In this document: one piece after another, positions 45,198-52,471 of the stretch
Layout: each line of letters starts with the position of its first letter
How positions within the stretch are numbered: position 1 is the stretch's first letter
DNA from: Fidelibacterota bacterium
GTDB lineage: Bacteria; Fidelibacterota; Marinisomatia; Marinisomatales; UBA1611
Assembly (NCBI GenBank): GCA_045568995.1
Contig: JBJKZY010000045.1
Location: 4,281-68,280, forward strand
Direction of reading: 5' to 3'
Length of the DNA: 64,000 bases
Notes under the pieces: model-generated
What the model saw: only the letters and a program-made list of their open reading frames with translations
The model's database searches: none
Told to the model about the DNA's origin: nothing
Program-made: the position numbers and the translations under genes

Positions 45198-45226
45198 TTG
45201 ACACATTCCTGAATTTGCATTAAAAT
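45198..45226 (+). promoter_or_regulatory. Sigma70-type promoter of the motor-like operon
   Basis: TTGACA (45198-45203), 17 bp spacer, TAAAAT (45221-45226); GAGGT RBS at 45271-45275. Confidence 0.8.
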
Positions 45227-45280
45227 TCCGAAGCTTTAGCGCATTTAGTTGCTAAAAGTGTTCATAATCCGAGGTAAAAC

Positions 45281-46462
45281 ATGACACTATTAAAATGCAC
45301 AACGAAGCGAATTTTTTTCGCTATAACTATCTTTATGCTAGTGGGGAGTGTTCTTTCTGCTAGAAAATTAACGTTAGAAGGTCAAGTTCTAAATGAAGAT
45401 GGAAAAAGAGTAAAGAAAGCAGAGTTAACTCTTAGCAAAGATGGTTCCACCTTAGAAGAAGAGAAAACAAAAGGTAACGGAAAATTCAAGTTCAAAAAAC
45501 TTGAAGAAGGAGAATATGTTCTAGGTGTTTCCCATGAAAAGGATGGTTCTGCAGACACAACTTTCTTTTTATCTGAAAACACTAATTTGGGTGAGATTAC
45601 TCTTTCAACAAAACCGGTAGTTCGCCCTGTAGTGGTAGAAAATTCTGCTGCAGGTGAAGCAAGTGTGTCGAGCTTAAACCCTGCAGCTGTTTCGATAACC
45701 GTTCCTCAGACTGTACAATCGATGGGTAGCCCGAATAAAGACTTCATTATAAATGAACTAAATTTTGAAATAAAAAAATTAAATGCCGAGATTAAACATC
45801 TTACGCAGGACCTTGATGATCTTAAAGCATTAAGTAAAATGTGGGTTAACCCTCTTACCATATATTCAAAAGAAATTATTTTGAAAAACGGAAGCACCGT
45901 ATTTGGGAAGATAATTTATCAGGATGATAAGTCTCTTAAGGTGGAAACTCTTGTGGGATACCTAATTGTTGATCGTGCACAAGTTGTAAGAATCGTGGAT
46001 AATGTAATAACTGAAGATTCTCAGGAGTATGTACCAGAACAAATTCGTGAAAGCTATGCCCCGCCCCCTATGCCAAAGCTAGCACAACCTAGATACACGT
46101 CATCTAATAATTCTGCTCGAATGGCTAGTGCAAAGCTCTCTGCTAATTGTGTGTTGGTTGGAAATATTGCTGAGAAAAAAGATAGTCAAGGTAATATTAT
46201 TTTTGATGGTGAAATTAAAAATATTGGAGGACGAAGAGCTGATTTCGTTAAGGTTGATTTTGTTTTTCGAAAAAATTGGAGCGGGGAGACAAGAACTTTA
46301 ACAACATTTGTTAAGGGTTCATATAATACTTTTGATACAGGGATAGTTTCTGATGCAAGTCTACTTCCTGGGGCAAATGGAAAGTTTGATCTTTATGTTC
46401 CTCAAGATTTTGGGACTTTTATTGGATATTCTTATGTTATTGATTGGGAAGAGTACCAATAG
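45281..46462 (+). CDS. Secreted multidomain protein (carboxypeptidase-regulatory-like domain, coiled coil, small beta module, C-terminal Ig/FxLYD-like domain)
   Basis: Signal peptide; LEGQVLNEDG..V..A...T..NGKF.F..L..GEY.L; heptad ELNFEIKKLNAEIKHLTQDLDDL; GEIKNIG...LLPG. Confidence 0.65.
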   Translation: MTLLKCTTKRIFFAITIFMLVGSVLSARKLTLEGQVLNEDGKRVKKAELTLSKDGSTLEEEKTKGNGKFKFKKLEEGEYVLGVSHEKDGSADTTFFLSENTNLGEITLSTKPVVRPVVVENSAAGEASVSSLNPAAVSITVPQTVQSMGSPNKDFIINELNFEIKKLNAEIKHLTQDLDDLKALSKMWVNPLTIYSKEIILKNGSTVFGKIIYQDDKSLKVETLVGYLIVDRAQVVRIVDNVITEDSQEYVPEQIRESYAPPPMPKLAQPRYTSSNNSARMASAKLSANCVLVGNIAEKKDSQGNIIFDGEIKNIGGRRADFVKVDFVFRKNWSGETRTLTTFVKGSYNTFDTGIVSDASLLPGANGKFDLYVPQDFGTFIGYSYVIDWEEYQ

Positions 46463-46487
46463 ATCTATTTAAATAATTTATTGACCT

Positions 46488-47909
46488 ATGAGAAACAAAA
46501 TTATATTTATAATAGTTTGTATGTTCGTAAGTACGGTTTTTTCAGGTACTAGAGTGGCTTATTCTCGCCCTGGTATGATGATGAGAATTCCAACTTCAAG
46601 CAATAAGGTTTCACCTTATCTGTTTCGCACAGGTTTTAGCACGGAAATTCACAACTTCAGCCCTTTCAATACTGCCGGTGGATTGTTTTTTGATATGGAA
46701 ATTAGCCGAGGGTTTAGCTTTGGTTTTTCTGCTGTTGTCCCTGGTGACACATCGAGAGTTAAAGAAAATCAAAATGGTTATTCTTTGGAAAATTCATCAT
46801 ATAACCCTCCAGTTGAATTTGGGTTTCATTTTCAACAAAGAGTTTATACATACAACGATATTTCTTTATCTGTTGGTTTGCAAGATGTTGTCTTTGAGAG
46901 TGAACAAACAACAGATCAAATATTAAGTCTTAACACTAACCTTTTATCTCTTTACACCGTTCTTGCTAGTGAAAAAGATTTAGGTGATTATAAAATGAAA
47001 ACATTTATGGGTTTTGGAACTGGAGGACTTGCTCCGACAGATGCAGACACCTTATCTGATGTTTCAACTTCTGAAATTGCATCTGTGGAAGATACGGCAG
47101 CCACTAATGCCGGTGTTTTTGTTGGTTTTTTATTAAAAACCCCATTCTTTAATCAATGGGGTGGAATGGATATTGTGGGTGAATTCGACGGAACGGGTGT
47201 CAATGTGGGACTCCGCATCCCCCTTACCTCGGATTACCGCCTGAACCTAGGGTTCACCCACATAGAAAAACTACCACAATGGGGAAACAGATATTGGTCT
47301 GGGCATCCTGGTTTTTCTCTAGGAATTTCTATGATTGTACCAAGGGATCCGCTTAAAAGAATACGAAGTGGTCCATCCACTCCTACAAATTTATATGGCC
47401 CCGAAAAAACAATGCCATCTGGAGGCAATGTTATGGCTTTGCACAGGGACTCAACAATTGTGATGGCAAATGTGGCAGTTGAAACTTTACGAGATTCTAT
47501 GGCATTGATGAATAATGAAATGCGTAATCTTCTAGTAAGGTTAAACGCAATGGAACAAAATAGTAAGTTTCTTTCAGATTCTCTAAACTCTTTGAAATTA
47601 GAGTCAAATGTTTCTGAAAAAAACATGAATGAGGCTATGAGGCATTTATCTCGATCTCTTAGGTATTTTTATGCTGGTGATTATCGAGAAGCCTTAAAAG
47701 AGGTTGATCTTTCATTGGAATTCAATCCAAATATGGCATTAGCCTATGCCCGAAGAGGATCAATATATTATAAATTAGGTGATGTACAAAGAGCTACTAT
47801 TAATTGGAATCTGGCATTACGTTATGATCCAGAATATACTGATGTCAGGAATATTCTTAAGGCTCTAAGTGAAAATCAGTTAAAATCAGCAAGTTTTATT
47901 GAGGAGTGA
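46488..47909 (+). CDS. Secreted protein: probable beta-barrel N-terminal domain, coiled coil, C-terminal TPRs
   Basis: Signal peptide, amphipathic Gly/aromatic strands, Pro linker, heptads, TPR (AYARRGSIYYKLGD...A...W..AL..DP). Confidence 0.65.
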   Translation: MRNKIIFIIVCMFVSTVFSGTRVAYSRPGMMMRIPTSSNKVSPYLFRTGFSTEIHNFSPFNTAGGLFFDMEISRGFSFGFSAVVPGDTSRVKENQNGYSLENSSYNPPVEFGFHFQQRVYTYNDISLSVGLQDVVFESEQTTDQILSLNTNLLSLYTVLASEKDLGDYKMKTFMGFGTGGLAPTDADTLSDVSTSEIASVEDTAATNAGVFVGFLLKTPFFNQWGGMDIVGEFDGTGVNVGLRIPLTSDYRLNLGFTHIEKLPQWGNRYWSGHPGFSLGISMIVPRDPLKRIRSGPSTPTNLYGPEKTMPSGGNVMALHRDSTIVMANVAVETLRDSMALMNNEMRNLLVRLNAMEQNSKFLSDSLNSLKLESNVSEKNMNEAMRHLSRSLRYFYAGDYREALKEVDLSLEFNPNMALAYARRGSIYYKLGDVQRATINWNLALRYDPEYTDVRNILKALSENQLKSASFIEE

Positions 47910-51469: not shown

Positions 51470-51488
51470 AAAGTGAGGATTCAATATT

Positions 51489-52424
51489 ATGGTTAATGAT
51501 TATAATTCACTATCTGGTCTACAAAAAGTAGCAGTACTATTTTCCGTGGTTGGAGAAGGTTTAGCTTTGTCTTTGGTTAAGGGGCTCTCTAAAACAGAAG
51601 TACGAAAAATTAGATCAACACTTCAGACCATGGGAACCATCTCTTTTAATGTAAAAAAAAGAGTCATGGAAGAATTTTACTTTGGTTTCTTAAGCGAAGA
51701 TGTTGGGCAGAATGGTGCCGATGGGAATGCAATACATCCTTTTGAATTTCTAAAAGATTTAACTGATGAGCAATTATTTGCTCTTGTAAATAAAGAAGAG
51801 GCTCCTGTAATTGCTATGACATTGGCTCAGTTGGAACCTAAAAAAAGAATGGAGGTTGTAAATAAGTTTGATGCAACTTTGAAAGGACAAGTTTTAGTTG
51901 AATTAGGATCATTAGACGACGTACCTCTAGAAGGTGTGATTGAAGTTGGTGCGAGGTTAAAAGAAAAATCTACATATTTACCAAGGACAACTGAATTTTC
52001 AAGAGGAGGCGCAAAAGATATTGCTGATATGCTTGGTGGTATGGATTCAAATGAGCAGGAAAGGTATATGCAAACTCTTCAAAATGAAAACCCTGATCTG
52101 CAGGCCGAAGTTAAAAAATACTTTCTTACTTTCAATGACATTCTTGAAAAGTTTCCAGATGCTACAAAAAGAGAGTTGTTCGTAGCTGCTGAAACGACAG
52201 ATTTAGCAATAGCTGTTAAGGGACTTGATCAGGAAATTGTAGATTCTATAATTGATATGTTACCACAAAAGAAGCAAGCCATGTATGAGCCTTATGAAGG
52301 TGCTATTTCCAAAAAAGAAGTTGATGCAAAAAGAAAAGATTTTTTAGATAGAGCTAAAGAAATGGATAAAGAGGGAACAATAAGCATTGAAGACATTCTT
52401 GGCGGCGGTGAAATGATAGAATAA
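51489..52424 (+). CDS. fliG: FliG-like rotor protein
   Basis: LSGLQKVAVL, PFEFL, IA..LA.L.P, GG linker, FLTF (MFxF equivalent), LAIAVKG, C-terminal EG.I. Confidence 0.85.
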   Translation: MVNDYNSLSGLQKVAVLFSVVGEGLALSLVKGLSKTEVRKIRSTLQTMGTISFNVKKRVMEEFYFGFLSEDVGQNGADGNAIHPFEFLKDLTDEQLFALVNKEEAPVIAMTLAQLEPKKRMEVVNKFDATLKGQVLVELGSLDDVPLEGVIEVGARLKEKSTYLPRTTEFSRGGAKDIADMLGGMDSNEQERYMQTLQNENPDLQAEVKKYFLTFNDILEKFPDATKRELFVAAETTDLAIAVKGLDQEIVDSIIDMLPQKKQAMYEPYEGAISKKEVDAKRKDFLDRAKEMDKEGTISIEDILGGGEMIE

Positions 52425-52441
52425 GGACTAAATAAATGATT

Positions 52442-52471
52442 AAAAAAAGCCTCTTTTTAGAGGCTTTTTTT
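52442..52471. terminator. Bidirectional rho-independent terminator between fliG and ppdK
   Basis: AAAAAAAGCCTCT-TTTT-AGAGGCTTTTTTT, a perfect hairpin with A/T tails between convergent genes. Confidence 0.88.

Follow-up and report, generated by a model that had tools for sequence, protein, structure and literature searches.

Six co-oriented genes at positions 45281-52424 of the 64,000-nucleotide stretch of DNA analysed here (the window) encode MotA-type and MotB-type stator subunits, a FliF-like and a FliG-like rotor protein, and two predicted envelope proteins. The stretch derives from a Marinimicrobia (SAR406/Fidelibacterota) metagenome-assembled genome (MAG; 1.56 Mb in 50 contigs, 52% complete; GC content ~35%). 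We consider it probable, at roughly 0.7, that the six genes represent a non-flagellar paralogue of the flagellar torque module that acts in an envelope-spanning complex and is ancestral to the Marinimicrobia. A first reading made from the sequence only had proposed a non-flagellar rotor-stator operon with envelope proteins, and this proposal is supported by the analysis reported here.

The open reading frame (ORF) listing gave six ORFs on the + strand with intergenic gaps of 25, 4, 6, 43 and 19 bp, in agreement with the six co-oriented genes and 4-43 bp gaps described before. The product order along the operon is secreted beta-sandwich protein, outer-membrane barrel with tetratricopeptide repeats (TPR), MotA, MotB, FliF-like and FliG-like protein. 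The genes, with lengths in amino acids (aa) and the main sources of each assignment (AF2, AlphaFold2), are:

45281-46462, + strand: secreted or anchored multi-domain beta-sandwich protein, 393 aa (Pfam, AF2 model)
46488-47909, + strand: outer-membrane 12-strand barrel, helix and TPR (AF2 model, Foldseek, Pfam)
47914-48699, + strand: MotA-type stator subunit, 261 aa (PF01618, solved MotA/PomA)
48706-49605, + strand: MotB-type stator subunit, 299 aa (PF13677, PF00691)
49649-51469, + strand: FliF-like protein, 606 aa (PF08345, profile against solved FliF)
51489-52424, + strand: FliG-like protein with N, M and C domains, 311 aa (FliG_N, FliG_M, FliG_C)

Conservation of the operon and its relation to flagella

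In all 20 order-level loci around a FliG-like gene, the FliF-like, MotB, MotA and barrel genes were found in identical order; the first gene was present in 17 of these, and the remaining three are cut by contig ends (genomes, contigs and loci carry working numbers with the prefixes G, C and L). ORF-level BLAST of 100 loci (the 20 order-level loci plus the best 80 from a set of 173 confirmed ones; among these 80, at least 12 repeat contigs of the first 20) detected the barrel gene in 100, MotA in 97, MotB in 95, gene 1 in 91, the FliF-like gene in 86 and the FliG-like gene in 83. Shortfalls among the loci checked are contig ends, with the exception of L091, in which the FliF-like gene is uncalled though space for it is present. 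Loci from other classes likewise keep the operon order (14/14); the FliF-like gene was detected in 13 of them, and a gap of ~800 bp with no assigned gene takes its place in L128. The two upstream genes are therefore conserved with the motor genes wherever the order-level contigs allow and at all of the distant loci, against the lack of such conservation in related genomes that the sequence-only reading had named as a finding that would refute it. Among the best 80 of the 173 loci, the titles that name a taxon are of Marinimicrobia type, except for one 1.8-kb contig labelled Nitrospinales; about half of the titles read only 'uncultured bacterium' or 'bacterium'.

The FliG-like protein was matched in 35 of 41 genomes (own, genus, family and order), strongly in 34. 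For the phylum, a sample of 301 genomes was used, each at least 80% complete; 235 gave a match, 213 of them with a best E-value of 1e-38 or lower, and the remaining 22 matched only weakly, as canonical FliG does. No match was obtained in any of the 26 genomes of one family with genomes of ~1 Mb, and neither the FliG-like nor the barrel protein was found in G187, a closed genome of 2.1 Mb. Two diverged copies of the operon were observed in each of two MAGs, i.e. on contigs C52 and C7 of G007 (L015, L016) and at L038 and L040; the FliG-like copies of G007 are 75% and 66% identical to that of the window. These double copies could reflect either a true duplication or the binning of two strains into one MAG. 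At G039:C1:31641-31841, a short stretch with four stop codons inside matches the barrel portion of the second operon protein, and may be an operon relic in a lineage that lost the operon.

In the own 1.56-Mb assembly, which is 52% complete, FliG_C gave a single match, the operon's FliG-like gene, and no match was obtained for FlhA, rod proteins, FliMN_C or CheW. The earlier statement that other flagellar or chemotaxis genes are missing thus holds for the window and for the families searched in the whole assembly. FlhA (PF00771) was found over cut-off in three of the 41 relatives (G030, G036, G039) and in 0 of the 24 in the same family. FliMN_C (PF01052) was confined to the same three genomes, rod and hook proteins (PF00460) to these and one stray match in G023 (7% contamination), and CheW was found in two of the three flagellated genomes among the 41. 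FlhA was found in 66 of the 301 phylum genomes. Cross-tabulation of the 301 genomes, compiled by hand from two lists with the operon counted by a strong FliG-like match, gave 166 genomes with the operon and no FlhA, 19 with FlhA and no operon, 47 in which both occur and 69 in which neither does; many of the 166 operon-only genomes are 95-100% complete.

Flagellated members of the phylum carry canonical counterparts of the operon's motor genes elsewhere in their genomes. Canonical FliF (PF01514) was found in flagellated G030, G036, G043, G153 and G195 at 1e-56 to 1e-59, and the flagellar regions of G030, G153 and G043 contain a canonical FliG with ~21% identity to the FliG-like protein. A second MotA (37% identity) and a second MotB (30%) are encoded at the flagellar cluster of both G153 and G043. 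These separate canonical fliF, fliG and motAB genes mark the operon as a paralogous set and not as a piece of the flagellum; a flagellum dependent on the operon's own fliF, fliG and motAB, which the sequence-only reading had named as the finding that would speak against it, was not encountered, since the flagellated relatives have their own sets.

All six genes are under strong purifying selection. In comparison with L036, dN/dS values were, in gene order, 0.062, 0.059, 0.009, 0.025, 0.063 and 0.025 (dS 0.19-1.10); the comparison with L041 was saturated (dS 1.4-2.6, one value undefined), and only that with L036 was used. These data bear on an explanation by decaying or shared flagellar genes, i.e. 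that the operon is the remnant of a lost flagellum or the working set of a flagellum encoded elsewhere. The parts are flagellar in origin, FlhA does occur in 66 of the 301 genomes, and the own genome is little more than half complete; however, six intact genes with dN/dS of 0.009-0.063, an order conserved throughout the phylum together with two non-flagellar genes, the 166 genomes with the operon and no FlhA, and the separate canonical sets of flagellated members make this explanation extremely improbable.

Marine RNA libraries were also examined. Small shares of the stretch occur in 23 rows from nine studies; contigs of four runs, from four studies, were placed on the genes, and the small shares in the other 20 listed runs were left out of account. 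Each of the six genes is covered by contigs of these four runs (16 to 25 of 30 bins), and single contigs bridge the barrel/MotA, MotA/MotB, MotB/FliF-like and FliF-like/FliG-like junctions. In these runs, cover was scarce or absent in the bins before 44862 and after 52449, which is no evidence for transcript ends.

Stator and rotor proteins

The MotA-type subunit (47914-48699) matches Pfam MotA_ExbB (PF01618) at 1.6e-26. Its NCBIfam matches to MotP (4.1e-50) and PomA (1.2e-43) both fall under the equivalog cut-offs, which points to a subfamily of its own. In full-length alignments with solved relatives, MotA 9lu9 (1.9e-34) and PomA (1.5e-31) were best. The charged pair of the cytoplasmic loop is kept almost throughout the family (R95 in 96/98 and E102 in 95/98 members), and the prolines P159 and P210 are each kept in 98/98. 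The MotB-type subunit (48706-49605) matches MotB_plug (PF13677, 6.4e-15) and OmpA (PF00691, 7.2e-09) in Pfam, and the NCBIfam MotB family at 9.1e-33, under the equivalog cut-off; it comprises a transmembrane helix with a conserved Asp (D35), a plug and an OmpA-like peptidoglycan-binding domain, and the Asp and the plug align with those of solved MotB and PomB. The operon is thus predicted to encode MotA/MotB-type stator parts, which by homology would adopt the 5:2 form and be rotated by ion flow.

The stator genes also gave weak PADLOC matches (ZorB 7.4e-13, ZorA 0.0036), as would be expected if the locus were an anti-phage defence system of the Zorya kind, with a motor of MotAB type. These matches extend only to the shared MotAB superfamily; the other four proteins gave none, no ZorC/D-like genes are present, and the locus is a stable, vertically conserved one of the phylum, often next to the same housekeeping gene, unlike a defence island. 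The probability of a defence role is next to negligible.

The FliG-like protein contains all three FliG domains (Pfam FliG_C 8e-18, FliG_N 7.8e-13, FliG_M 3.6e-09), scores 100.9 bits against NCBIfam TIGR00207 (cut-off 226.7), and aligns with Thermotoga maritima FliG at 1.7e-19. The FliM-binding EHPQ motif is replaced by EEAP (aa 102-107), and by EEPR, ESPT, EPPR or EEVK in FliG-like proteins of relatives; of the three canonical Marinimicrobia FliG sequences compared, two carry EHPQ and the third ENPQ. The junction of the N and M domains is ~25 residues shorter than in canonical Marinimicrobia FliG. The alignments thereby confirm the losses in FliG that had been noticed from the sequence, i.e. 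of the EHPQ motif and of part of the N-M linker. The Gly-Gly hinge is kept (aa 173-174) and invariant in the sequences compared. In the torque helix (aa 258-278), the Lys/Glu/Lys(Arg) charges are retained at a length 3-4 residues below the canonical one; in the G043 lineage the helix is of canonical length, and its charge pattern is R/EDE/RR.

FliG and the MgtE N-domain have a fold in common, and a Pfam MgtE_N match (6.4e-08) overlaps FliG_C on the FliG-like protein. This overlap, the lost FliM-binding motif and the shortened torque helix could be accommodated by a non-rotary use, in which MotAB would be a gated, peptidoglycan-anchored ion channel and the FliG-like and FliF-like proteins a membrane scaffold or sensor. 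We consider such a use very improbable: the MotA residues that contact FliG are nearly invariant, and the parts conserved in the FliF-like protein are its RBM3 (ring-building motif 3) and the FliG-binding tail.

For the FliF-like protein, the sole Pfam family matched was YscJ_FliF_C (PF08345; 3.3e-05, 24.8 bits with a cut-off of 23.8). YscJ_FliF (PF01514), which covers RBM1-RBM2, was matched neither on this protein nor anywhere else in the 52%-complete own assembly. A family profile of 57 sequences matched chains of solved M-rings (12dr, 2.9e-05; 6scn, 7.1e-04, at FliF residues 241-437), and its hhalign comparison with canonical Marinimicrobia FliF gave 87.7% (E 3.5e-06) over 42 columns at the start of RBM3. 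The RBM3/collar homology suggested by these three tests is weak but consistent across them. The loss of RBM1 and RBM2, also noted earlier, is borne out, with PF01514 unmatched and only RBM3/collar recognised.

The FliF-like protein begins with a hydrophobic segment (aa 7-22), followed by an RBM3-like motif (aa 27-231) that is split by an insertion carrying the near-invariant GLPIPGFE (P-x-P-G-F in the family). A charged helical region of ~200 aa with a short conserved D-S motif, a transmembrane helix (aa 432-451) and a cytoplasmic linker rich in Pro, Arg and Lys come next, and the protein closes with a conserved C-terminal helix (aa 548-581) that ends in KEWLE, in which E552 and W578 are invariant in the family. 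The middle of the protein is variable in sequence and length, and family members measure 431-617 aa.

A natural fusion of the two rotor proteins was found in G039, a flagellated genome that has no operon (contig C8; L142:8390-9928, - strand, 513 aa). It comprises an N-terminal hydrophobic segment, a FliF-like RBM3 including the P-G-F motif, a transmembrane helix, and the FliG M and C domains; the RBM3 matches the FliF-like family in hhalign (77.9%, E 1.8e-05, 154 columns), and FliG_C is matched at 9.1e-18. The fusion argues for the FliF-like and FliG-like parts working as one unit. Downstream of it, L142:7435-8418 and L142:6236-7423 encode two coiled-coil and TPR proteins, one a lipoprotein and the other secreted, with TPR akin to the C-terminal part of the barrel protein (97.4%, E 1.3e-11), which shows that the helix-TPR module travels with the rotor unit in a second gene arrangement. 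No MotAB genes were found near the fusion locus L142. Full-length relatives of the fusion occur in eight of the 301 genomes, i.e. in 6/6 of one family and in G284 and G104, the last of which has the fusion, the six-gene operon and FlhA.

Other motor-type genes were observed in the phylum. The non-flagellated G018 encodes an orphan MotA (269 aa; MotA_N and MotA_ExbB) and MotB (242 aa; plug and OmpA) at L136:4159-6276, followed by a 190-aa protein that matches no Pfam family; the pair lies apart from the operon and from the ExbB-ExbD-ExbD-TonB cluster. A similar MotA-type match was observed at G034:C31:3827-4219.

Envelope proteins and flanking sequences

The 393-aa product of the first gene matches Pfam CarboxypepD_reg at 7e-08. 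Its AF2 model (mean predicted local distance difference test score, pLDDT, 79.5) comprises an N-terminal hydrophobic helix, a transthyretin/CarboxypepD_reg-like sandwich (aa 30-107) and a disordered linker, followed by a helix (aa 153-188), a small beta-barrel (aa 197-240) and a C-terminal beta-sandwich (aa 290-390). Fold matches were confined to the N-terminal domain, including N-terminal extension (NTE) domains of SusC (Z 10.2 and 8.8); the searches with the whole model were filled by matches to this domain and effectively covered it, with the small beta-barrel and the C-terminal sandwich outside. It is residues ~135-393 that are conserved in the distant phylum loci (47-56% identity in 13/14, 33% in L128), and the N-terminal transthyretin-like domain is not conserved in these 14. 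The protein had been called Ig-like; it is indeed a beta-sandwich protein, of a transthyretin-like fold followed by two further beta domains. Matches of this protein to Leptospira-family NCBIfam models were also observed, and were set aside as a pointer to taxonomy once related loci had given the phylum.

The AF2 model of the second protein (mean pLDDT 78.9) has a signal peptide, 12 strands (aa ~44-285), a disordered linker, a 77-residue helix (aa 320-396) and TPR (aa 399-472; Pfam TPR_2, 1.7e-08). Foldseek returned outer-membrane barrels of 12-14 strands (FapF 1.9e-05, PorV 4.8e-05, OMPLA, NanC and OmpG; TM-scores of 0.26-0.31 on the query) as well as TPR arrays, and the model and these matches agree with the barrel-TPR assignment made from the sequence. 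Within the operon, conservation is highest in this TPR. A homologue search with the barrel family gave 1443 clusters, and those listed are all unnamed or 'hypothetical protein'; the latter is also the only name that database entries give for the two accessory proteins. The ESM Atlas contains no structure of either of the two. An ESM Atlas feature search with the barrel protein (46488-47906) returned Fidelibacterota clusters and clusters of YaiO-type barrel-TPR proteins (0.87-0.88), as leads only. A further lead from the ESM Atlas is a barrel-TPR look-alike of 409 aa (score 0.97), mostly labelled Candidatus Margulisiibacteriota; this cluster could be the result of mis-binning, of gene transfer or of a wider range of the system.

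In most lineages an extra gene lies between genes 1 and 2 (e.g. L080:8093-8983 and L116:8552-9415) and encodes a secreted coiled-coil and TPR protein of 206-304 aa. It is absent from the window (46463-46487), the lineage of which has lost this YbgF/CpoB-like gene. The best NCBIfam match of the extra protein was tol_pal_ybgF (TIGR02795; 2e-12 to 1.7e-06, 28.6-48.3 bits with a cut-off of 90.1); CpoB was also matched below cut-off, and PorW/SprE weakly.

The extra gene raises the question of a Tol-Pal-like machine, in which the module would replace TolQRA and, with the YbgF/CpoB-like protein, MotB and the barrel-TPR protein, tether or constrict the outer membrane in growth and division. In common with Tol-Pal, the operon would have an ion-driven inner-membrane motor of the 5:2 type, an OmpA-like peptidoglycan domain and a partner in the outer membrane, and most lineages add a coiled-coil and TPR protein with YbgF as its best match, below cut-off; it differs in having a MotAB-type stator with a plug and not TolQR (ExbD family), and FliG and FliF-like proteins in place of TolA. 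The fully complete (100%) G045 has only two PF01618 genes, the operon MotA and the ExbB of an ExbB-ExbD-ExbD-TonB cluster, so that no TolQ-type gene is seen there. Neither TolB nor Pal was recognised, the ExbB/ExbD genes examined lie with TonB, and TolB_N was matched in one of five genomes, weakly; however, this model was positive only in two Proteobacteria among 14 control genomes, which leaves little weight to its absence. Furthermore, the absence of the operon from the ~1-Mb family (0/26) and from other near-complete genomes is a poor fit to an essential role, the YbgF-like gene is missing from the window itself, and the need for a FliG ring is left unexplained. We regard a Tol-Pal-like role as unlikely.

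The operon might also take the place of GldL/GldM (PorL/PorM) in type IX secretion or gliding, with a motor that powers the SprA translocon or moves secreted surface adhesins. SprA (TIGR04189) was found over cut-off in 10/10 genomes (G018, G034, G035, G045, G153, G187, G038, G039, G102 and G184), and many Por C-terminal sorting-domain proteins are reported for SAR406 genomes (PMC5596340). GldL, GldM and GldN were found in 0/5 genomes by searches that were positive in no control genome, and the PorV match of the barrel and the weak PorW/SprE matches of the YbgF-like protein point in the same direction. However, five of the ten SprA genomes (G187, G038, G039, G102 and G184) have no FliG-like or barrel orthologue, which indicates that secretion is independent of the operon; the GldL/M/N searches had no positive control, and the barrel matches are generic for barrels of 12-14 strands (TM-score ~0.3). 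The explanation by type IX secretion is thus quite improbable.

The following features flank the operon:

45198-45226, + strand: sigma-70-like promoter candidate TTGACA-N17-TAAAAT, within the 129 bp that separate gene 1 from the preceding ORF
52441-52472, no strand: hairpin of 14 pairs (4 G-C) with a loop of 4 and A- and T-runs on both sides, bidirectional intrinsic-terminator candidate
44480-45151, + strand: upstream TPR ORF, possible accessory gene (Pfam TPR_1, 8.4e-06)

A near-consensus promoter had been proposed before gene 1. The site is present, matches 11 of 12 positions and is the top-scoring of 32 sites in 43200-52700, but the number of promoter-like sites in this region is at chance level (32 observed and 32.1 in shuffles), so that only its intergenic placement speaks for the candidate; scoring was against the sigma-70 consensus, which may not be the type used by Marinimicrobia. 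The terminator proposed at the other end is present as a hairpin with a T-run 3' of the FliG-like gene; it lies between this gene and the convergent pyruvate phosphate dikinase gene and, as a bidirectional candidate, would be shared by both.

The upstream TPR ORF (44480-45151) stands beside the operon in 69 of 100 order-level loci and in 0 of the 14 distant loci. Its listed TTG start overlaps the preceding gene (43654-44583), which encodes a biopterin-dependent aromatic amino acid hydroxylase (Biopterin_H), by ~100 bp, and the true start is therefore probably further downstream. Elsewhere in the window, a 1008-aa MORN-repeat protein is encoded at 55236-58265 (- strand), followed by genes at 58399-59226 (-), 59264-60331 (-) and 60517-62898 (+) for proteins of 274, 354 and 793 aa that gave no Pfam match at 1e-05.

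Proposed machine and its implications

As the torque parts are all kept and the parts for building and steering a flagellum are gone, the simplest interpretation is a stator-rotor module that works within the envelope and has no switch. MotA and MotB would form peptidoglycan-anchored, ion-conducting stator units, and the cytoplasmic loops of MotA would push the C-terminal torque helix of a FliG-like ring. This ring would be mounted, via FliG-N, on the conserved C-terminal helix of the two-pass FliF-like protein, the periplasmic part of which would comprise only the RBM3/collar ring-building motif and a long helical extension. With no FliM/FliN switch and no chemotaxis input, the motor would be unswitched. 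It would do its work within the envelope, on the outer-membrane barrel and its periplasmic helix-TPR part, on the YbgF/CpoB-like protein in most lineages, and on the secreted beta-sandwich protein. That rings assemble and rotate and are coupled to the outer-membrane proteins is what we infer from the genes and their relatives, and the output is inferred likewise.

For the output, our best guess is an accessory surface or envelope function, e.g. moving or energising an outer-membrane complex; it is guessed to be accessory and not essential since streamlined lineages have lost the operon, and its losses resemble those of accessory traits, e.g. motility or surface interaction. Surface motility, envelope remodelling and energised outer-membrane transport, which had been suggested before, are speculation.

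Several points weigh against the proposed module. The own genome is 52% complete, so that the absence of a flagellum rests on its relatives, and the one member of the phylum in culture is reported to be non-motile (PMC11652737). The FliF homology is weak (1 bit over the Pfam cut-off, E-values of 3e-05 to 7e-04 for the profile against the Protein Data Bank, and 88% in hhalign over only 42 columns), and the torque helix is shortened in most FliG-like proteins including that of the window, such that the MotA-FliG interface may differ from the flagellar one. The absence of the operon from the ~1-Mb family and from G187 makes it dispensable. Rings and rotation are predicted here from genes and models, and contigs of RNA libraries can contain DNA, by which a single transcript is not provable from them.

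The module is most closely comparable to the flagellar motor, with homologous MotA, MotB, FliG (N, M and C domains) and FliF (RBM3/collar), and with the stator Asp, the MotA charges and prolines, the Gly-Gly hinge and the C-terminal FliF helix kept. Unlike in the flagellar motor, the FliF-like protein of the operon has no RBM1/RBM2, and EHPQ and ~25 residues of the N-M linker are lost from the FliG-like protein; the genes for export gate, rod, hook, filament, FliM/FliN and chemotaxis are absent in 37 of the 41 relatives, and the motor genes are joined with barrel-TPR and beta-sandwich genes. A second FliG-type protein beside the flagellar one is known from spirochaetes: FliG1 of Borrelia functions in flagellar motility and is not known to have a dedicated FliF or MotAB, whereas the operon provides a private rotor-stator set and occurs mostly in genomes that have no flagella. 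GldLM/PorLM and the Agl-Glt system of Myxococcus are likewise MotAB-family motors that work non-flagellarly at the outer membrane; their periplasmic shaft belongs to the stator-like complex, and they are not known to use a FliG or FliF ring. Flagellar relics such as the basal bodies of Buchnera and the chlamydial FliF/FlhA/FliI also retain a subset of flagellar genes and no filament. These relics keep the export apparatus; the operon keeps the opposite subset, the torque generator, and has dropped the export apparatus.

No description of the operon was found in full-text searches of the open literature (subscription journals and supplements lay outside this coverage), and a term search of PMC6143742 and PMC5688066 gave no mention of flagella or motility. 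What is unusual in this probable MotAB-family motor for non-flagellar envelope work is the co-option of the flagellar rotor itself (FliG on an RBM3-only FliF). A more far-reaching version, to which we assign somewhat less than an even chance, is a third kind of trans-envelope rotary machine beside the flagellum and GldLM, in which MotAB would spin an RBM3-only FliF ring with FliG, and torque would pass via coiled coils and TPR to the barrel and the beta-sandwich protein. If this is true, the operon would serve an undescribed surface function, which might be a gliding-like motion across particles, the displacement of outer-membrane complexes or energy-driven transport. It would also show that the rotor-stator core of a flagellum can work in living cells with no type III export, and would bear on the evolution of the flagellum.

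To our knowledge, the torque generator MotAB/FliG/FliF has been known only as part of a flagellum. The operon suggests that this torque generator alone is kept under strong purifying selection across a phylum, coupled to outer-membrane proteins and mostly in genomes that have no flagellum, and it thereby offers a natural test of flagellar parts working alone, with the RBM3 ring, FliG and stators kept and RBM1/2, export gate, rod and switch dropped. Marinimicrobia are among the most abundant bacteria of the dark ocean, and the operon is a candidate for a new envelope nanomachine in this ecologically dominant and barely cultured lineage, for which a function may be sought in the cell biology of SAR406, e.g. 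in particle association, envelope dynamics or secretion.

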